A DNA stretch of 30,326 nt from positions 1 to 30,326 of IMG/VR virus record IMGVR_UViG_3300030433_000533, one strand, 5' to 3'. The notes below the pieces were generated by a model. It searched no databases. It was not told the DNA's origin and was given only the letters and a program-made list of their open reading frames with translations. Within the stretch, counting starts at the first letter, position 1; each line of letters starts with the position of its first letter. Of this stretch, positions 4,299 through 29,376 are shown one piece after another. A program made the translations under genes and the position numbers. This DNA comes from a virus (Duplodnaviria; Caudoviricetes).

Positions 4299-4324
4299 AT
4301 AATTCCGAAGTTGCCTTCGGTTTT
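4299..4324. promoter_or_regulatory. Palindromic motif copy 1 (upstream of tail fibre)
   Basis: ATAATT-CCGAAG-TTGC-CTTCGG-TTTT, between the stop of 4323..7454 and the fibre RBS. The repeat is certain; its function is inferred. Confidence 0.75.
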
Positions 4325-7300
4325 ATTCGCTTAATTGATCTACAATAGTGTTTATGAACAAAGCGTTTTGATACGGAAGCCAGTCCATAAAATCGCTGCC
4401 TTCAGTATCTGCATGAGTTGCTATTTTTAGAGGTAACTCACCTAAACCCAGTAATTTATCAGCCGTGGATACGGTGGGGTTTCCAGACCACAGGCTTGTA
4501 GCCATGCCCGTGCTTCTGCCGTACTTAGAGAACATCGGGTCTAAACCAACAAATTCTAAAACAGAGTCAGTTAGACCCGGTATGAGAGAAGCGTAAGCAG
4601 ATCGCTGAAATGCAGCTTTGGCGATAGCGTCCAACTCAAACAATTCAGGGTCTTCACCTCCCGTGCGTAGATAGGTCTGACCCATGTACGCTAGACCACC
4701 AAGCAAAGAGGTCGTCATAAAGGCTGAGAAGTGTGCAAAGTCTCTGCGGTGTACTGCTTGCAGGGTTTGCTTTGCATACGCCACAAGCATGAAAGTTCTA
4801 AATTGAGTTATAACTTTACCAAGCGGAGTGGTCATCCAGTAACCCATCGCACCTATGTCGTTGGTCTGAATGACACGGTTTGTCCATCTGTATATACCGT
4901 TGGCAAACTCTTCGCGCAGATTGATAGGCCAATCCTGCATATTAAGATCAGTTAGCTTACCGTTGCTGAAAGATGCTTTCCTTAATTGGCCCATAATTTG
5001 GTCAGTTACTTCATCCGACCATCCGACCTCTCTAAAATTAATGCGGTCACTTTCCTTTAGAGGCTTGTTAGCCAGTGTCCCTAGCTTTCCTATAAAGGTC
5101 TTTCCCGCTAAACGCTGTGAGTACATTGTGATAGGGGTCATGCCAGACAGAACGCTGGTAATACGTTTACCCTTTACACCAATCTCTAAGGCTTTCTTCT
5201 GTGCTTCCGTCAGGTTGCTGCCGATAACCTCGCCACCTGTTGTGCCTGTATATCTTTCAGACATGGAAGCATAGCGTACCCAGTCTGTGCCGATACCTGT
5301 CAGAGACTCGAAGTCTCGCAGAATAGCATCGTCCTTGATCTGTCCTGTTGCCATATCACGCTGTAAGGCTCTGAGAGCAGGCATGTTAGTTACCATCGCT
5401 CTCCACCCGCCCAACGATCCTATGTTCCCTAGCTCTGCAAGTTGTGCAAAACCAACTTGGTTCATAACTCGCATGTAGTTGTAGTCTAGGAGAAGCTGCG
5501 TAAACGTATCGGCAGCGGCAGACCTGTCGTGCAGGGGTTTACCCAGCAATGACCGTATCATCACTTGTGCGCGTTTAACGTCCCTGTTTATTCTCGCCTT
5601 GTTCTTTGGATCGAGAACAGCATCGTCAGTAGCTTGTCGTAGTATCTGATCGAACTCTGCTTCATCAGTTATGCCTAGAACTCTGGCAGCGGCGATACGT
5701 CCTGACATCTCCCGTGCATATTTATCCATGCCTGAATAGGCGTTACTGTCGTAAAGGTCTTCCATACGTAGAAGATTGCCGTTTACGGTAGCCTCGAATG
5801 TCTCATCGATGTCTAATTTACGACTTAGACTGCTACCTTTTGTAGCCTTCTTTGATAGCAGTCCGTTGATAGTCTCAAACATTTCTTCAGTAAATTCTGT
5901 GCTACCAAAATTATCTCTTTCATTGTCGAAAAACTTTCGGACATCATCGATGTTTTGTTTTGATACCTGCCCAAAGTTTGCAGCGGTTCCAGCATCAGCC
6001 CTCTTGATACCTAGAACATATAAACGTGCCATAGCTTTTGCTGTAGCTTCGTCCAGCTTTAGGCCGCGAGGTTTTGACAGGTATGCTTGAGCAACAAAGT
6101 CTATAAAGTTCTCTTCGCCACCAGCCTTCTGAACCATCTGTCCAAGTTTGCTGATAGATATACGGCGAGGTACGTAGAGGTCGTTGAAGTCAATCTCATC
6201 TGCGTTCTTTACCCCTGCGTCTTTGAGGTCTTGCAGGATTCTACGCATCATTTGTCGATACGAGTCTCGCGCCTCTTTGACTAACTTCTTTTGAGCGTTG
6301 TTGAGGTTGTCTAACCCATCTATGAAATCGTCACCTTCGCGCCTGACAGCTTGTTCTATGAGTTGTCCGAAGAGGTCACGCTCGTTACCAAAGAAACGTG
6401 TGCCAGCTTCGTTACGGAACTGCTTTTCCAGAACGTATAGTCTTGCTCCAAAGCTGCCGTGATAACTTTGGTACAGTCTGTCCCCAAGTTCTGTAGCACT
6501 GATCTTATTGACTTGTCCGTCTCGGACATCAGCCACGACATCTTGAGCTAAACGAGACAATCTGGTTGAAATAATTTTACTAGGAGATGTCTTAATGGCA
6601 TTTCCCATATCGAACCTGATCGGAATCTTTATATCCGTAAAAGGCAGACGAAAGTGTGACATAGCAGTGGGTGCCAGATCAGCGTCCGGTCCTTTAGCGT
6701 TGTCTACTACTTCTGCCCTAGCAGGTTTGAGGGCGTCTCTCTGTTGTTGTGTAAGAGGGATGCCAGCCTCATCGGCCTGACGTACAAACTGCGTATTTTC
6801 TACGTCCGTAAGCTTACGTCCTAACGCTGTACCAAAACCGCCCAGCGCACCGCCAGCGGCTGTGACCATCAGGATATTCTGTATTGCATCAGAGGTTGTC
6901 AGTGTCTCTTTATTAGCACTAATAAAACCTTCTAGTGCCGCACCTTCTACAGCACTGATACCTGCCATAGATGCAATTCTACTTGATCGAGTTGCCTGCC
7001 CTATACGGCTGGCAATACCAAACCCGCCTAGCGTTCCTGTACCTAAGCTGGTTATCCACAGTGCAGGATCACCTACGTTGAGAAGAACCCTCGATGCTGT
7101 GCCTGTCCAACCGTGATCCGCCAGCTTCTGAGCAAGCTCTTGCTCCTCTAGGATGTCTGCTACAGTTCTGTCCCATTCGTTCTGGTTCTGAACATCAGCA
7201 AGTGCGTGGAAGTTCTGTGGTTGTACACCGCGCTCCTGTGCAGCATCGAACATCTCAGGCGTTGCAACAAAGTCGAGATCGATCTCCGCTGTGCCTTCGG

Positions 7301-13500: not shown

Positions 13501-13533
13501 AAGAAAGTGGGGAGCCTACGAGAGACCCCCCAC
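13501..13533 (-). terminator. Intrinsic terminator after the capsid gene (T-phi-like position)
   Basis: Minus strand GTGGGGGG-TCTCTCGTAGG-CTCCCCAC followed by TTTCTT, about 20 nt after the capsid stop. Confidence 0.75.
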
Positions 13534-13551: not shown

Positions 13552-14705
13552 TTACGGGGCAGCAGTCCGAATTTGTACAGCCGCTTCTGGGCGGAGAACG
13601 TCGTGACCCATAGCGTATTTGGCTACCATGAGCGTGCCTTGGCGGCGAATGTCGTATTCCATCTCGACAGCCAAATCCATGAGCTTGACCGTTCCGACAG
13701 CACTCGGATGCATGACAAGTGCAACCGTGTTACGCGCATCCACAACGGCGGACGCAACAGAGCCACCCGCATCAACGCCCGTACCAGTAATATTGGTAGT
13801 CGGGAGGTGAGGGGTCTTAATGAGGTTGATACCTGCAAGTTGCGGTACAACACCAGCGGCAATGGAACCCATGCCACTGAAGTCTACGTTGATCGCGTTA
13901 CTTGCGTTAGCCAAGAGGTAGTATTGCTCTGGCTTCAGGAAGCAGAAACGATCTTCGGCAGGTACAAAATTGTCATCAAGTGCTTCAGCCGCATCGAAGA
14001 TTGCAGTAATCAGATCAGCAGCAGCGGTATTGGAGTTGGTCGATGTGATGATCGTACCTGACGGGTAACTGGTATCACCGACGTTTGCTGTGCTTGTCTT
14101 TGCAGCTTTAGCAATGACTTGCAGTACGTGCTTGTCCATCTGGAACGCAAGAGCGCGGCCCATCTCGGTCGTGTACACACTGCGGACATCGTAGTGGTTC
14201 TTAGCTTCTTGGATTGATGCTAAGAAATGGTGGCTAATAAGAAGATCGTTAATAGTGATAATCTTCTCATTATGGTTAAGTGTGGAACCTACGATTTCGT
14301 TGCCGGGTGTATGGTACTCGGCGGACGAACGTCCCATTCATCACACTACAGCTTTCGCTGCCAGATATACTGTTTGTGCGCTGGACTTTCTCTTCATCTC
14401 TGAGAGATGCCTCCCGTAAAGTCTCTACACCTTCCCCGTAGGGCTTGGCTCGGGATTACCGGACTAAAGGCTTCCCCGAATTTGAGAGGTTTTCGGCTAG
14501 ATGTCACCACCTAGCTAGGCAATATATTTACCGGGAACTGTGCCGACTTTCCTGAAGGAATGGAGCGAACCATGTGTTTGTCGGCAGTAACGGTGTACTG
14601 CTCGAAACTGGTAAGAACTTCACCAGCCCAAACTTTCAAGAAAAGGGCATCTGCGGTTCCAGCATTATTAACCTTGCCAAGATCAGAGATCGTAGCGTTA
14701 GACAT
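13552..14705 (-). CDS. Major capsid protein (gp10-like), two exons: 14705..14530 and 14338..13552; 320 aa after splicing
   Basis: Exon 1 ALFLKVWAGEVLTSF...RSIPSGKSAQFP and exon 2 MGR...YHTPG...ITINDLLIS...YDVRS...MGRALA...KYAMGHDVLRPEAA are both T7-like capsid. The join CCG GT|A ATG GGA is in frame (176+787=963 nt). Confidence 0.93.
14339..14529 (-). ncRNA. Group I self-splicing intron, IC3-like, ORF-less, 191 nt
   Basis: Exon ends in U and intron ends in G; core elements P AAAUUCGGGGAA, Q AAUCCCGAGC, R GUAGAGACUUUA, S AAGAGAAAGUCC; helices P1-P10 can be paired by hand; removal restores the capsid frame. Confidence 0.92.
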
Positions 14706-14736: not shown

Positions 14737-14762
14737 ATAATTCCGAAGTTACCTTCGGTTTT
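14737..14762. promoter_or_regulatory. Palindromic motif copy 2 (upstream of major capsid)
   Basis: ATAATT-CCGAAG-TTAC-CTTCGG-TTTT, about 30 nt before the capsid ATG. Confidence 0.75.
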
Positions 14763-14838
14763 AAAGTGTGTGCTTACTCCACTTTTCTCACAGATTGTCC
14801 TCCGTAGAGGGTCATAGGTACTCAGATTTGTAATGCAG

Positions 14839-18385: not shown

Positions 18386-18592
18386 TTATTCTGTCCTCTC
18401 TTGTAAATGGAGTACCCAATCGACGACAGACCGTTGACCAGCCCTGTAGTAGAAGTCTTTCAACTCTTCATGATATTTTGGAGAGATGTTTGGAAAGGCT
18501 TTGTCTAATAGTTCTATGAGTTCGTCTACGTTATCGGGTAACGCTTCTAATTCCGAAGCTGACTTCGGATTTATTGATATGTTCACTGACAT
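18386..18592 (-). CDS. Conserved small phage protein
   Basis: LIELLDKAFP...YRAGQRSVVDW pattern typical of the gene preceding the structural module in T7-like phages. Confidence 0.7.
   Translation of the reverse strand: MSVNISINPKSASELEALPDNVDELIELLDKAFPNISPKYHEELKDFYYRAGQRSVVDWVLHLQERTE
18548..18572. promoter_or_regulatory. Palindromic motif copy 3 (in CDS, start of structural module)
   Basis: TAATT-CCGAAG-CTGA-CTTCGG-ATTT. Confidence 0.7.
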
Positions 18593-20816: not shown

Positions 20817-21520
20817 AAGTTCACCGTGTTCGTTTTCATGTTGTAGTCATTTGCTTTTAGCAGGTACGCAAGCCGCGCATTTTCAAGAGCGTCATCCTCG
20901 TTGAGACCTGCCTTCTCAAACGCAGTTAGCACCTCTCCCCACAGTGTCGCAGGGTCTGTTTGATCCTTGAGCAACTTCTCTGCTTTGACAGGACCGACGC
21001 CGGGACAACCTTTATAGTTGTCAGAGCTATCGCCCATGAGTGTCTGCATATAGAACCATCGTGTACATTCGTCTGGTTCCCGCTTGACCAGATCACCATC
21101 GACAAAATGATAACCAGGTACTTGCAGAAGGTCTTTGTCAGGTGAGACGACTATCGTGTCATCGTCTGCCAGCATCGAGATAACATCATCAGCTTCGAGG
21201 GTTGGTATAATTCGCGTGTCATAAGTGTTACGCAGGTGTTCTCTCGCTGCGTTCAAGCACAGGGGTTTACGCTGTGACTTACGATTAGCTTTGTATTCAG
21301 AGCTTATGTTCTTACGGAAGTTCTCCCTGTCGGTTAGGGCGACGATCATTCCGTCTGCTTCCGTCTCTTCCATAAGCCAGCCGAGATAGTTGTCTATCTC
21401 TGCGTTCACTTCTTGGGCATCGCTATGCAATGTCCAGAAGTCTTCGTACCATTCTATAGGTTCTTCAAATGCCGCCGCTGTGCGGTAGGCAACAATGTCT
21501 CCATCGACTAACAGTCTCAA
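20795..21520 (-). CDS. 5'-3' exonuclease (gp6-like)
   Basis: LLVDGDIVAY, NFRK...YKANRK, LEADDVI, DKDLLQVPG, QTLMGDSSDNYKGCPGVG; TTG start overlapping the upstream TGA, GGAG SD. Confidence 0.95.
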   Translation of the reverse strand: MRLLVDGDIVAYRTAAAFEEPIEWYEDFWTLHSDAQEVNAEIDNYLGWLMEETEADGMIVALTDRENFRKNISSEYKANRKSQRKPLCLNAAREHLRNTYDTRIIPTLEADDVISMLADDDTIVVSPDKDLLQVPGYHFVDGDLVKREPDECTRWFYMQTLMGDSSDNYKGCPGVGPVKAEKLLKDQTDPATLWGEVLTAFEKAGLNEDDALENARLAYLLKANDYNMKTNTVNLWQPPTQ

Positions 21521-21921
21521 CTGTCTCTCCTATCTAAATGTTCGTAATGGGTTTTCTTCTGAGAACTGAGAAAGTCTTTGACCTCCTCAGATTTCGTACC
21601 TCGCCATGCAATCAGTGCGAGGGCTTGGACATGCTTCTCTTTGAGGTGGTTCAGTAGCTTTTCACAGAGATTGATTGCTCGATCTCCATAAACCGCCCAT
21701 GTCCAACTTGCTCTGGAATTGCCTTTAGCTTTTCCATGAGTGGTAATCGAACCACCGTACTGATCGTAAATGCTGCATAGTATGTCGTAGTTGCAGCTAT
21801 TTACTTTGACGCAGACGGTATTCGTCTTCGTAATGAAGCAACCTTCTCCGTCGAGGTAGCCAGCTAACCACTCTTCGCTAATGTGTTTCGGACCAGTTCC
21901 TTCCGATACGATATTCAGCAT
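21517..21921 (-). CDS. Free-standing single-motif LAGLIDADG homing endonuclease (start uncertain: 21987, ATG 21921 or ATT 21882)
   Basis: WLAGYLDGEGCF motif followed by a YGG turn, W.W.V strand and LKEKHVQA helix; sits between DNA polymerase and exonuclease, outside any intron. Confidence 0.82.
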   Translation of the reverse strand: MLNIVSEGTGPKHISEEWLAGYLDGEGCFITKTNTVCVKVNSCNYDILCSIYDQYGGSITTHGKAKGNSRASWTWAVYGDRAINLCEKLLNHLKEKHVQALALIAWRGTKSEEVKDFLSSQKKTHYEHLDRRDS

Positions 21922-23635
21922 CGAGGGGTGTTCTGATTCCGAAGTAGTCTCCCGCTTTTTTAATAGATCGTACTGCGAGTTCACCAAATATTTCTCCTAC
22001 ATCTTCATCACATTCCCATTGGACTTCATCATGAACCCACGCCACCTGACGGCAGCGGTCACGCAGACCTTGGATGTGAACTTCTTTATTGATTTCGATA
22101 AGCCAGCGTTTGCAGATCAGAGCGCCAGCGGATTGAATAATGAGGTTGGGAGAACTGTGAGGGCTACGAACCTTCAACAGTCTGCCATCGAGACCAGTAA
22201 GATATCCTTGGTCTTCTGCCTTCTGTTTTACTTTGGTTATGAAGGAGTCGAGGGCTGGCAATTCCTTGAAGAAACGCTTCTTCAATTTAGCCCCGGTTGC
22301 CCTCGTACCTCCAACTATCTGCCCCAGCTTCTCAGCACCTGCCGAAAAGATCAGAGCATAGATAAACGTCTTGGCTTGATCGCGTGTTTCTAGCCCAGCC
22401 TTCTGCTGATTGAAGGTATGAATGTCACCTTCGAGTATAGCTTTGGCATACGCACCTTTATCAATCGGATGCATGAAGTGGGCAAGGACACGTAGCTCAA
22501 GACCTGATACGTCAGAGCCAACGAGTACCTTACCCTCTGGAACCGTGAACAACTCTCGACACTCTTTGCCGAAAGGCACACGGCAGCTAGGTATCTGCGC
22601 CATGTTGGGGTTCCGGTGTGTAGCTCTGCCTGTGACAGCACCATTGACTAGAACCCTGCCATGTATGCGGTTATCTCCTTTGACATTCGATAACCAAGCC
22701 TGCCGACCCTCGCTCAAAGCTGCGATACGTTTCGCTATAAGAAAGTAATCAGCCAGCTTCTTAGCTTCGGGATAGTTCAACGACTGAAGTATGGTCTCAT
22801 CGATCTTCGGTTGACCGTTTGGCGTATACTCCTTCGGCTTCCACCGATACTTGTGTTTCAGTCTGTTCGCTATGTGGTGACGAGACTGCGGGTTGAAGGT
22901 CACTGTCGTTACCTTCTCCGTCATCTCCCCCTTCACGTACCCGTACTTTGAGTTTGTTGCCTTCGGCATGAACGGTGTACGTACTTCGTATGGCGGGAAT
23001 ATCTCTTGGAGTTCTCTCTCCAGTTTCTCTCGCTGTTCTTCGAGATATGTTGCGAGATTCCATGCCTTGTCTTTGTCGAACAGAAAACCGTGACGCTCTT
23101 GCGCGGAGCATATTCGATGCACGGCGTGTTCGAGCGAGATACTTTTTTTTGAGAACTTCTTAGAAGTTAAGTAATCGTGGAGTGCGTGAGTGACATGCAC
23201 ATCTTGCACGGCATACTCCAGCATCTCTTCAGTGAGAGTATCCCACGGTCCCTCGAAGTCTCCTTTCAATTTACCAAGCCGAAGCCCCCATGCCTTGAGG
23301 CTATGAGAACCGTTGAGCCGGGGAGGTAAATCTTTTTTGTCGAAGTCTCGACGCTGTATGTCTGGTGCTACTAGCCTAGCCCATACCAAGGTATCTAATA
23401 CCGAAGCTGACTTCGGTTTAAAGTCAGGTTCAAACTTCTGTATGACAGGTATGTCGAAGTCGATAATGTTGTGACCGATAATCTCATCAGCCTCTGACAG
23501 AACAGGCAAAGCGTCACGCCAGTCAGATGTATAGGTCGTGATATTGTCGTCTGCTTTATCGATGTCCTTGGTAATCAAACAGTGGATGACATCTGGGTCG
23601 AGACCGTCTGTCTCGATATCGAAGACGATCCTAAT
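21878..23635 (-). CDS. DNA polymerase family A (gp5-like) with 3'-5' exonuclease; start extended to ATT 23635
   Basis: Exo I VFDIETDGL (upstream of the track's TTG), Exo II GHNIIDFD, SHSLKAWG, Exo III YAVQDV, TGR, motif A DVSGLELR, motif B RDQAKTFIY, motif C HDE. Confidence 0.95.
   Translation of the reverse strand: MRIVFDIETDGLDPDVIHCLITKDIDKADDNITTYTSDWRDALPVLSEADEIIGHNIIDFDIPVIQKFEPDFKPKSASVLDTLVWARLVAPDIQRRDFDKKDLPPRLNGSHSLKAWGLRLGKLKGDFEGPWDTLTEEMLEYAVQDVHVTHALHDYLTSKKFSKKSISLEHAVHRICSAQERHGFLFDKDKAWNLATYLEEQREKLERELQEIFPPYEVRTPFMPKATNSKYGYVKGEMTEKVTTVTFNPQSRHHIANRLKHKYRWKPKEYTPNGQPKIDETILQSLNYPEAKKLADYFLIAKRIAALSEGRQAWLSNVKGDNRIHGRVLVNGAVTGRATHRNPNMAQIPSCRVPFGKECRELFTVPEGKVLVGSDVSGLELRVLAHFMHPIDKGAYAKAILEGDIHTFNQQKAGLETRDQAKTFIYALIFSAGAEKLGQIVGGTRATGAKLKKRFFKELPALDSFITKVKQKAEDQGYLTGLDGRLLKVRSPHSSPNLIIQSAGALICKRWLIEINKEVHIQGLRDRCRQVAWVHDEVQWECDEDVGEIFGELAVRSIKKAGDYFGIRTPLDAEYRIGRNWSETH
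23396..23420. promoter_or_regulatory. Palindromic motif copy 4 (inside DNA polymerase CDS)
   Basis: TAATA-CCGAAG-CTGA-CTTCGG-TTTA. Confidence 0.65.
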
Positions 23636-26856: not shown

Positions 26857-26875
26857 AATAGGTTCTCCGAATAGG

Positions 26876-26900
26876 TAATTCCGAAGGTGACTTCGGTTTT
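26876..26900. promoter_or_regulatory. Palindromic motif copy 5 (between RNAP stop and SSB RBS)
   Basis: TAATT-CCGAAG-GTGA-CTTCGG-TTTT. Confidence 0.75.
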
Positions 26901-29376
26901 AAGAGAAGAAGTGATCTGACTTCAGAACACTTTCGATATCAAAATCCCCTCGCTTCGGTACGTCTGGTAAACGGTCACGAAACTTAGAAGAAAGAAGGGG
27001 TTTAACATGGTCCCTAATTGCCTGTAGGTGATCGGTGTCACGATACAGTTCGACAAACGCCTCACGGGTACACTGACTTAGTATCGGTGTATCAACGGCA
27101 GTGGTCCCGTAGCTGTCGTGAATCATACAGAACGCTTGCACACCTTGATCCATCGCCTTGTTCATTGTCATGTACATGGCGCTTGCATCTAGGCTGTGAA
27201 TAAAGTTCGCAGCAATACCGTTGACCATCGCATGACGGTCATAGCGTTGCTCCTTCGCCACGTTAAGTGTCAGGCGTATCGAGTCACCAAGCAACCGCAT
27301 CTTCACCCGACTAGGCTTCATATCGTAGTAGGCTTGTCGAACGTACATGCCTGTCGGTGTAATCCAAGAGATCGGTATGCCGTCTTGAAGACAGACACTG
27401 GTCAGGTCTTGCAGGTATTTCATACCCACCATCGCACTGCCGACAGTCTGCTTGATCGATGCCCATATCTCATTCGTCAACCAGATGGCTTGCTTAAAAT
27501 ATTTTCCACCAAAAGGCTCGGGGATTCCTTGGTCGAGACGATCAGCAATCCACTCGTCAATGCCATCTGTCATGGAGAACCGCTTGGCACCATACGATAG
27601 CGTCATCGTTGGCGTCTTTGCCAAGGCACGATCCAGTCCGTAGTCCAACCATCCTTGCGCTATCTCTTTACCTTCGAGGTCAAGCTCAACGATACGCTTT
27701 AGTCGATCTATAAGAATGTCGAGCGCCGCTACGTAGGCATCTCCCGGTTTGTCGCCGGGTGCTAGGTTCACCAACTCTGCGGCAACGGGATCGAGCAGGT
27801 TCGCTGCCCAGTGCTGTATCGAATTGCATGTCCCGTCACGCATGACCGGGAGTGTCGTATAGAATGCGCTGCCGTCACGCTTCCATCCTAGCCACTCCTT
27901 ACAGAAGGCGAGGGCTGTAAAAGATTTCTTACCAGCCTCACACCAGAACCTGTTATCGAACGGGTTGTCACCTGCCTTACAGATTTCTTCGGAGTGCTGC
28001 TCGATCCACTCGACACGTTCATCGAGTGTGCCTTTGTCCTCCCCGAAAAGTGCAGCGCCGTAGATAGCAAGCTCTCTGGCACCCTCGTCAGTCATCGCCT
28101 TGCCTTCTGCGTCACCAAACCTCAACAGACTACGACCAAGGTCAGCGCCTTGAGGTTGAAGGTACGATGTCATCGGGTATGCCCTGCCTCTGAAGTCACA
28201 GGTGTAGACAAAGTACAGTTCGTCTTGGTCAACGAATTGTTGCGCGACCCTCAACGTATCTCCGACAAGGCGACGATGGCTTTTGCTTCTCGCTCTCTTG
28301 GTTCGAGCCTTTACCGCTGCATGTTTCCAGAGCTTCCGCGCTTCAGCGTTGGTCTCAATGTCCTGCGGCTTCGGTGGCAAGATCACTTCGCCTTGCGCTG
28401 GCAATCGACCGAGTGTGCTTTCGTTATCCCAAAGCTCTTGCACTACGTTGAGCATGTCCGCATCGACCCGCCATCGCGTGTCTTGCAGAGCGTTGATCGG
28501 TCGAAGCATGTCGGACAAATCGAAGTTGCTCAGTTCATGCAGATACTCATTGGAGTGTGTCTTGATGAGCGCAGGCTGTTTGATGTTTGGTGTGATGTAC
28601 CCACCCGTCATGTTTTTCGACGGGTCTCGATCAGGCATTACACCACCCCAAGGACGAGGACGCACCACCATCGGCAGGTACTCGGGTTCGTTGATACCTT
28701 GGAGAAAATCTTTGTGACCGATCCACTTCACTGCCTGTTCCGACAACTCAATGCACCACTTCTTCTTCTTTGGTTCTTGCTTGCGGTACATCTCGATCAA
28801 ATCGGTACGCTCATGAATAGCTTCGAGCATACGAACGCCGACCATCGCTCTCTGTTTCCGTGTCCACAGCGTCAGGTCGATGCCGTGTGTTGTAGCTGAC
28901 TGAAATAACTTTCGACGCTTGTAGCGATAGCCGTAGCTGCGCGAGAACACATCAGCGTAGGTGGTTTTATAGAGTTGCGGGTTTGCTTCCTCAAAGATAC
29001 GAGCCTTGATTTCATCTTCGATCTTGCGTCCGACATCGATGGCAACGGTTGTAAGGTTCGTTGTCTTGAAGGTTGAGTTCAGCATAGCTGACAAAGCTAT
29101 ACCCGCTGCGACATCAGGTTCGATTATCTGAAGCAGTTTTATCGCCTCAACTTTTCGACCTGCCTTGCCGTTATCCATGACCTCTTCCGTCTGTTCACGA
29201 ATCGTATCGGCAATCGTGTCGATGTAGTGAGCGACCATTGCACGACCAGATTTGGTCATGCTCATGTTCTCTGTTTCTTTGAGTTGTTTGTTACGCGACT
29301 TCACTCTCTCGATGCCGCGCTGTCTTGATTGCTTTTCGAGAGCAATTTGTTCGTTAAATTTTTTTCCTAAATCCAA
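26899..29376 (-). CDS. Single-subunit DNA-directed RNA polymerase (gp1-like)
   Basis: PMVVRPRPW, DFRGRAY, PQG, motif A DGTCNSIQH, motif B RALAKTPTMTLSYG, NFIHSLDA, motif C IHDSYGT; TTG start with GAGGA SD. Confidence 0.98.
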   Translation of the reverse strand: MDLGKKFNEQIALEKQSRQRGIERVKSRNKQLKETENMSMTKSGRAMVAHYIDTIADTIREQTEEVMDNGKAGRKVEAIKLLQIIEPDVAAGIALSAMLNSTFKTTNLTTVAIDVGRKIEDEIKARIFEEANPQLYKTTYADVFSRSYGYRYKRRKLFQSATTHGIDLTLWTRKQRAMVGVRMLEAIHERTDLIEMYRKQEPKKKKWCIELSEQAVKWIGHKDFLQGINEPEYLPMVVRPRPWGGVMPDRDPSKNMTGGYITPNIKQPALIKTHSNEYLHELSNFDLSDMLRPINALQDTRWRVDADMLNVVQELWDNESTLGRLPAQGEVILPPKPQDIETNAEARKLWKHAAVKARTKRARSKSHRRLVGDTLRVAQQFVDQDELYFVYTCDFRGRAYPMTSYLQPQGADLGRSLLRFGDAEGKAMTDEGARELAIYGAALFGEDKGTLDERVEWIEQHSEEICKAGDNPFDNRFWCEAGKKSFTALAFCKEWLGWKRDGSAFYTTLPVMRDGTCNSIQHWAANLLDPVAAELVNLAPGDKPGDAYVAALDILIDRLKRIVELDLEGKEIAQGWLDYGLDRALAKTPTMTLSYGAKRFSMTDGIDEWIADRLDQGIPEPFGGKYFKQAIWLTNEIWASIKQTVGSAMVGMKYLQDLTSVCLQDGIPISWITPTGMYVRQAYYDMKPSRVKMRLLGDSIRLTLNVAKEQRYDRHAMVNGIAANFIHSLDASAMYMTMNKAMDQGVQAFCMIHDSYGTTAVDTPILSQCTREAFVELYRDTDHLQAIRDHVKPLLSSKFRDRLPDVPKRGDFDIESVLKSDHFFS

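Follow-up and report, generated by a model that had tools for sequence, protein, structure and literature searches.

Phage introns are described as preferring genes of DNA metabolism (PMC12350094), and among the subgroups of group I it is IA2 that is tied to phages (PMC11878797). According to a review published in 2014, every phage intron seen until then lay in a protein gene (PMC3984707). The major capsid genes of crAss-like phages are reported to contain group I introns, several per gene (Yutin 2021, PMC7886860), and in the Jug jumbo phages introns of about 206 nt on average occupy essential genes, with RNA reads that support splicing for 37 of 76 (PMC12880540). The four classic types of tRNA intron are all marked as IC3 (Williams 2020, 10.1101/2020.01.27.920355), a subgroup without P5abc (PMC11835236), and the tRNA-Ile intron of Azoarcus is 205 nt long (PMC2709566). 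Capsid-gene introns are already in print; what is new here is a compact capsid lineage of the tRNA type, which is largely unannotated. In a literature search that left subscription papers outside its scope, we found no paper on capsid introns of T7-like phages or pelagiphages, none on a natural group I intron below 200 nt, and no account of a tRNA-type capsid lineage; the database of PMC11835236 may already list the GenBank cases. The word "intron" is absent from the preprint on Pelagibacter phage HTVC120P, and from PMC7162821.

The window, that is the whole stretch of 30,326 nt analysed here, is a linear virus record of 30.3 kb with the gene content of a T7-like podovirus: RNA polymerase, integrase, DNA polymerase A, endonuclease I, scaffold and a Gp10A-like capsid protein. 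The best named relatives of the capsid protein (57–61%) come from Pelagibacter phages and marine fosmids, and most of the sequencing runs that contain the stretch carry a marine label. The window has one major capsid gene only, on the minus strand, which the intron splits within codon 59. Exon 1 (14530..14705, minus strand) comprises codons 1–58 and two bases of Val59 and ends in CCGGU; exon 2 (13552..14338, minus strand) extends from the last base of the Val59 codon up to the stop codon, begins with A-AUG and matches Pfam PF21703 (E 1.4e-79). Both exons match consecutive positions of a single PHROG capsid profile, phrog_267 (27–79, then 80–327).

A terminator-like hairpin lies 3' of the gene (13507..13533, minus strand; a consensus match only), and a 27-nt repeat containing a 6-bp hairpin lies 5' of it (14737..14763, minus strand). 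The latter is one of five close copies; the others, also on the minus strand (26872–26901, 23392–23421, 18544–18573 and 4299–4325), stand before or within gene blocks. One of the five sites follows the RNA polymerase gene, another falls in the region of the DNA polymerase, and the remaining three precede the structural block, the gene of the capsid and that of the tail fibre. These repeats are likely promoters of the phage RNA polymerase, with a palindromic core that is unusual for such promoters. Scans for sigma-70 promoters and terminators around the intron gave matches at chance level only.

An earlier note on this DNA had proposed that a group I intron of 191 nt that has no ORF occupies positions 14339..14529 (minus strand) of the capsid gene, and this is confirmed. 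The Rfam group I model RF00028 matches 14539–14361 on the minus strand with 62.7 bits (E 7.6e-14), above its gathering cut-off of 50 bits; the region folds better than its shuffles (z -3.2), and no open frame exists on either strand of the intron. Excision of 14529..14339 gives a single frame of 320 amino acids with the junction GKSAQFPV|MGR. The base that precedes the 5' splice site (-1) is a U, engaged in the U–G pair of P1, and the last base of the intron is a G. Nine other pairs of U...G boundaries would also keep the frame, but they were rejected, since only 14529/14339 yields the conserved FPVMGR. Exon 2 as a query retrieves 138 viral relatives; of the best 80, 79 reach the insertion site, and in all 79 the capsid frame is unbroken there and equal to the spliced frame of the window; 73 read KSAQFPVMGRS. 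The whole stretch lies within one contig in runs X1 and X2, from two studies (X1 is possibly the window's own source), and in the metagenome contig L353; its presence in single contigs of several datasets argues that the intron is no assembly artefact. All the details given by the earlier note for this part, from the boundaries to the junction and the length of the unspliced product, proved right: an in-frame UAG (14511..14513, minus strand), located in the 5' strand of P2, ends that product after 64 amino acids. An in-frame stop occurs within the first 37 nt of the intron in each of the 23 capsid introns compared below, and such an early stop is described as a way of freeing the RNA for folding (PMC3984707, section 11).

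The intron adopts, in prediction, a group I fold, all of it on the minus strand. P1 (14518..14532) joins exon GGU and intron AA to the intron guide UUGCC, and, as read from the sequence, intron nucleotides 6–9 can form P10 with exon 2. P2 (14496..14515) has 8 bp and is capped by a GUGA tetraloop (L2), for which docking on P8 is predicted. The stretch 14430..14480 holds P4, a short P5 (3 bp closed by an 8-nt loop), P6, and P6a with a UACG loop. The catalytic domain (14383..14489) is made of P3 (14489–14484 with 14415–14410), the guanosine-binding helix P7 (14425–14420 with 14387–14383), a J7/3 of 4 nt and P8 (14409–14395), a 15-nt plain helix of 6 bp with a CU:AG receptor. The P9 domain (14342..14380) is predicted to be a three-way junction, in which a 5-bp base stem (intron nucleotides 150–154 with 184–188) carries a second, 3-bp hairpin beside the GAAA-capped one; this layout is shared with the introns at the PF19821 site described below and with tRNA-fMet introns. 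The helices that had been paired by hand in the earlier note (P1–P5, P6a, P7, P8, the P9 hairpin and P10) all pair as written, while P6 and the three-way 3' domain had been overlooked.

The covariation set consists of 23 distinct related capsid introns with both ends mapped, each of which restores an open frame; they were aligned with MAFFT without fitting to the structure. Over the 44 core pairs, 95.3% of 1008 cells are paired (including as broken three rows that lie one column out of register in P1 but pair by eye), and 28 pairs show two-sided changes. None of 500 shuffles equals this level, and slid controls reach 26–44%. P7 is invariant in the 23 introns; conservation is poor at the last pairs of P5 and P8, those at the helix ends. 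The exon triplet covaries with the guide triplet (GGU/GCC, CGU/GCG, GAU/GUC and AGU/GCU). A GNGA loop in L2 goes with CU:AG in P8 in 14 of 15 cases and GNAA with CC:GG in 6 of 8, counts which refer to related rows rather than to independent events and leave three of the 23 introns outside the rule; the published rule pairs GUGA with AG/CU and GUAA with GG/CC (PMC3494683). The conservation of the core pairs with compensatory changes in 23 introns suggests that the structure is under selection and that the ribozyme is likely alive.

The intron would then likely splice itself out of the late capsid mRNA. Translation would end at the UAG that lies 17 bases inside the intron, after which the RNA would fold; a guanosine bound in P7 would cut after the U–G pair of P1, as in standard group I chemistry, P10 would align exon 2, and the terminal G would mark the ligation that produces the mRNA of the 320-residue capsid protein. 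It could be argued on the contrary that the intron is dead, the capsid protein being translated in two separate chains or solely from the AUG that opens exon 2, in line with the A-AUG found there and with the two capsid CDS that gene callers have annotated in HTVC120P. However, a Shine–Dalgarno-like sequence is present before exon 1 and absent before the AUG of exon 2, exon 1 (as judged on L001) aligns with the N-terminal part of solved T7-like capsids, and the helices and tertiary pairs are conserved, so that we find this reading hardly credible.

It may also be that splicing takes place only with the help of host RNA chaperones or of a maturase, the tertiary clamps of the Azoarcus type having been lost. 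The Azoarcus intron makes two GAAA/11-nt receptor contacts (table of PMC3494683; receptors also in PMC2275092), where the window intron has a P5 of 3 bp and a P8 that is a plain 6-bp helix; both receptors being missing, it may fold less well. On the other hand, the contacts between GNRA loops and helices are conserved by covariation, the core helices P4, P6 and P7 are intact, and no candidate maturase tracks with the intron. We consider a strict need for proteins rather unlikely, and retain unaided splicing as the likely course of events.

The subgroup assignment made by the earlier note, a tRNA-type, IC3-like intron rather than the IA2 type of phages, is supported by the features of the fold. 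There is no P5abc, as expected of IC3. The IC3 receptor for a GNRA loop is placed in P8; here, neither an IC3 receptor nor an 11-nt receptor exists as an internal loop. P5 and P8 being devoid of internal-loop receptors, we file the intron as an IC3-like variant. P7.1 and P7.2 mark subgroup IA, and P7 and P3 are only 4 nt apart in the window intron, which leaves neither element between them and argues against the IA2 type. Both are named among the classifying elements in PMC3984707.

Among the cellular introns sampled, the nearest by blastn is a cyanobacterial tRNA-fMet intron (75% over 161 nt), whose tRNA gene was identified as fMet from the body of the tRNA. The cyanobacterial tRNA-Leu(UAA) intron and four betaproteobacterial tRNA-Ile(CAU) loci, used as stand-ins for the Anabaena and Azoarcus introns, respectively, gave no blastn match at 1e-5. 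The likeness to the Anabaena tRNA-Leu intron that the earlier note had pointed out holds for the type, tRNA/IC3, but not for the particular relative: tRNA-fMet is nearer, and the capsid introns of other phages are closer still. A pattern built on the core occurs at no fewer than 120 viral loci (about 210 estimated), where 83 of 122 matches fall in anticodon-loop introns of tRNA genes as called by ARAGORN; a looser pattern occurs in at least 120 bacterial loci (about 1700 estimated), with 88 of 120 within tRNA introns. Most viral relatives thus sit in tRNA genes, which contrasts with the 2014 statement on protein genes. The viral tRNA-intron matches come from IMG/VR contigs (L083–L202), some of which may be host DNA. 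An apparent tRNA-Ile intron of 190 nt (L245) turned out to be a boundary error of ARAGORN, so that the lengths given by this program (185–237 nt for the viral introns) are approximate.

Some further observations were made by eye or with weak matches. In L100, L226, L264, L280 and L309 an HNH-like frame stands directly before a tRNA-type intron, perhaps in the loop of P1, and in L103 and L154 an HNH-like gene follows a tRNA that bears such an intron. About 1260 plasmid records share a 50-nt piece that resembles P4–P6 of the intron; in pCTX-M3 (L434:1501-1551) it lies between genes, some 0.8 kb away from aac(3)-IId, and is perhaps the remnant of a captured tRNA intron.

The window intron is real and probably functional; it is compact, but it is not minimal or unusually small, as had been claimed. 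It is indeed shorter than the Azoarcus intron, but the 23 capsid introns span 173–202 nt and eight of them are shorter than 191 nt, with kin of 173–180 nt, and the Jug-phage introns are close to it in size. The shortest have a single P9 hairpin: L127:1155-1327 (173 nt, 81.9 bits in Rfam), L099:1855-2029 (175 nt) and L106:1154-1330 (177 nt). If the members of 173–180 nt work unaided, they are candidates for very small natural splicing ribozymes.

Several of these introns are hidden in current annotations. The intron of HTVC120P escapes the Rfam model even at E 0.1 (as searched on L081 and L203), and KT997847 contains two introns of this kind at other capsid sites; both records list split "capsid proteins" with no intron marked, annotations that can now be corrected. 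HTVC120P provides, in addition, a test system that is cultured and harmless. In L002 and L071 an intron of 256 nt lies near the 3' end of the capsid gene. Two or three group I introns occur per capsid region in L149, L127 and L082, and L453 and L467 have two further, more distant intron-like insertions (weak matches) near the PF19821 site.

The intron is not a fixed part of this phage. It is absent from L001, which has 97% protein identity (42 differences in 963 exon bases), and intron-less contigs were found in runs X3, X10, X13 and X14, whereas run X5 contains both alleles (X11 does not cover the site). The only run with a metatranscriptomic label, X13, is probably DNA; at the junction it has the intron-less DNA allele and no other. 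The sequence CCGGT-AATGGGA, which ligation of the window exons would create, occurs in no intron-less DNA allele at the 79 loci or in runs X3, X5, X10, X13 and X14. Besides the intron-less allele of the window phage, run X3 contains (record 6) a relative of the intron that is of the PF19821 type. In the PF19821 family, 70 of 80 relatives are unbroken and seven have this intron.

The earlier note had suggested that the intron may be a GTP/Mg-sensitive control, the efficiency of splicing linking capsid synthesis to GTP or Mg2+ to the benefit of the phage. Unspliced RNA would indeed give only the 64-residue stub, and capsid genes have been invaded repeatedly, up to three introns being present in the capsid region of L149. 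But this patchy presence, with near-identical genomes that do without the intron, alleles mixed in one sample and PF19821 relatives that are mostly unbroken too, speaks against regulation. P7, which binds the guanosine, is invariant and of the ordinary kind, all group I introns depend on GTP and Mg2+ (PMC3984707), and the choice of the target is explained by the conserved sites. The proposed control is unsupported, and we hold it to be very improbable. We are fairly confident, on the contrary, in an overall explanation in which the intron is an optional, dispensable and selfish passenger that likely removes itself from the mRNA, and not a regulator.

The intron-less alleles carry a trace of how the passenger may move. 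Every near-relative allele without the intron differs from the window at exon positions -3 and +1, which are synonymous and are read by P1 and P10. In X10, where the flanks differ by one base in 184, these differences are nevertheless present, and in the independent pair L204/L523 there are eight differences in 930 bases, two of which are at -3 and +1. The constancy of these differences suggests either that the intron arrived with bases of the donor, that is, by homing at the level of DNA, or that the exon adapted immediately. Within the phage population the intron would likely spread at the DNA level, together with its -3 and +1 exon bases.

No endonuclease ORF lies inside the window intron, as it would in a homing intron, and no free-standing endonuclease gene adjoins it, as would be expected for collaborative homing. 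No endonuclease was obvious when the ORFs of at least 90 amino acids near 18 capsid-intron loci were inspected by eye. The window does contain a LAGLIDADG-like ORF of 156 amino acids (21517–21987, minus strand; PHROG 5046, E 1e-17), which overlaps the end of the DNA polymerase gene, has no Pfam match at 1e-3 and shows weak likeness only in the PDB (E 0.005). It was rejected as a partner of the intron: it is 7 kb away, and it is kept at 85–93% in G001 and G002, both of which lack the intron at this site.

Endonucleases are nonetheless found at the same stretch of the capsid gene in relatives. The KSA|QFP site, 11 nt upstream, is occupied in five loci, in L572 and in Ralstonia phage RsoP1EGY by introns of 513–532 nt whose P8 contains an endonuclease VII ORF (PF02945); endonuclease VII-bearing capsid introns at KSA|QFP include L083:1173-1688, L354–L358 and L603:774-1288. 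Nine Ralstonia phage records match the endonuclease VII intron at 67%. It is not annotated as an intron in RsoP1EGY, and several Ralstonia phages are annotated with a lone "endonuclease VII", the intron being left unmarked. Of 80 endonuclease loci, four have the endonuclease VII ORF standing free, just behind an unbroken capsid gene. The introns 11 nt away and the free-standing genes make it likely that the stretch is an endonuclease target.

It is therefore conceivable that the window intron acts as a shield, interrupting the GKSAQFPV stretch at which a homing endonuclease, provided in trans by another phage in the same cell, would cut; this is compatible with self-splicing. The endonuclease VII introns are of the same family, the free-standing genes lie behind intact capsid genes, the endonuclease F-CphI and a psbA intron provide a precedent (PMC6083498), and the -3 and +1 differences fit a repair tract copied from a donor. 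We nevertheless see this as possible but doubtful, because the window intron has no endonuclease gene inside or beside it, the LAGLIDADG-like ORF is distant and occurs without the intron, and the hosts of the endonuclease-bearing introns are more distant phages, with capsid proteins only 43–49% identical in exon 2.

Regarding the longer history, the same insertion site is occupied in HTVC120P (two annotated capsid CDS) and in four IMG/VR contigs, with introns of 197 nt in HTVC120P, L203 and L205 and of 178 nt in L204 and L206. However, 13 of the 23 capsid introns lie in the other capsid family, PF19821, at profile position ~201, which maps near position 239 of phrog_267 as against 79/80 for the window site, and it is there that the closest kin of the window intron are found: they are 80–85% identical to it, compared with 71% for the same-site intron of HTVC120P. 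The best blastn scores are 172 and 95 bits, respectively, in a comparison where 23 of the 37 PF19821 loci had been fetched with a motif derived from the window. A motif of the 3' domain of the window intron occurs in 23 viral contigs, several of them identical; all 21 that could be parsed have it at the PF19821 site and none in a T7-like gene, and the two others show the same exon on one side.

Trees, which are short (150–196 columns) and unrooted, place the window intron with the PF19821 group (support 95 by SH-aLRT, 100/100 and 89/83), and the capsid introns apart from most tRNA introns. AU tests reject a sister relationship of the window and HTVC120P introns (p 0.002 and 0.037), and a single clade of the four distinct same-site introns is likewise rejected (p 4.5e-6). 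Grouping all the T7-like introns in one clade is not rejected (p 0.20); the full-length tree has them on one side of a weak branch (71/83). The G+C content of the window intron is 49%, compared with 45–56% at the PF19821 site and 33–40% for the other T7-like introns, a difference which may pull it towards the PF19821 group.

The location of the closest kin, in another capsid family and at another site, suggests that the intron has jumped from one gene to another. CGGU|A is available to the GCC guide at both sites, while the intron-less relatives have GGU at that place in three of 79 cases and GGU|A in none. We contrast this with vertical inheritance, according to which the intron entered once in an ancestor of the T7-like marine phages and was lost repeatedly, the window keeping a GC-rich ancestral form that would account for its likeness to the PF19821 introns. 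The same-site introns of HTVC120P and of the four contigs, and the T7-like clade that is not rejected, are consistent with it. However, the same-site introns are rejected as a clade, none of the 79 closer relatives that reach the site (from the best 80 of 138) has the intron, precise loss would leave the fixed -3 and +1 differences unexplained, and one jump between the two capsid families would still be required. We consider strictly vertical descent unlikely; in any case, one or more jumps between non-homologous capsid sites are needed, and the window intron is likely the direct product of such a jump.

The lineage would probably derive from tRNA introns, with 10–30 bases lost and the bulky tetraloop receptors of P5 and P8 replaced by plain helices, and would have made at least one move between the PF19821-type site and the non-homologous T7-like site. 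Reverse splicing is a proposed route for such moves, for which direct experimental evidence is lacking according to the review cited above (PMC3984707). In its most complete form, the proposal is that of a streamlined, tRNA-derived lineage that has made phage capsid mRNA its niche, whose members of 173–180 nt splice themselves, which hops by matching its guide through reverse splicing, and of which the window intron is a recent jump; we put this forward as a tentative picture. If true, the lineage would offer an example from nature in which transposition of group I introns can be tested. The apparent jump connects two non-homologous sites that have CGGU|A in common, and is relevant to the question of how such introns come to occupy new sites.

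Compared with described systems, the window intron is close to the bacterial IC3 introns of tRNA-fMet, tRNA-Leu(UAA), tRNA-Arg(CCU) and tRNA-Ile(CAU, Azoarcus), with which it shares the core motifs and the lack of P5abc, P7.1 and P7.2; the cyanobacterial tRNA-fMet intron also has the same short P5 and P9 layout. It differs in being located in an mRNA, in a P1 that is built on codons rather than on an anticodon stem, in a P8 that is a plain 15-nt hairpin without the larger receptor, and in its length (191 nt, compared with 202–204 nt for the betaproteobacterial tRNA-Ile introns and 205 nt for Azoarcus).

The classic IA2 introns and those of T7-like DNA polymerase genes (PMC11878797; Bonocora and Shub 2004, cited in PMC6083498) also occupy conserved phage genes and are of a self-splicing type, and some classic phage introns carry endonuclease VII ORFs, as do the relatives at KSA|QFP. 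The window intron, by contrast, lacks P7.1 and P7.2, lies in a structural gene and is far shorter than the mean of 802 nt given for Bastillevirinae introns (PMC11878797). The genes named for the Jug-phage introns are terL, nrdD and DNA polymerase, unlike the capsid gene described here. The psbA intron of cyanophage S-PM2, with its endonuclease F-CphI (PMC6083498), is likewise an ORF-less intron in a marine phage gene; in our case, endonuclease VII genes stand at or beside the capsid stretch in relatives, and none is adjacent in the window genome. Last, the capsid introns of crAss-like phages were found through their endonuclease domains, whereas the intron of the window is ORF-less and belongs to a T7-like podovirus.
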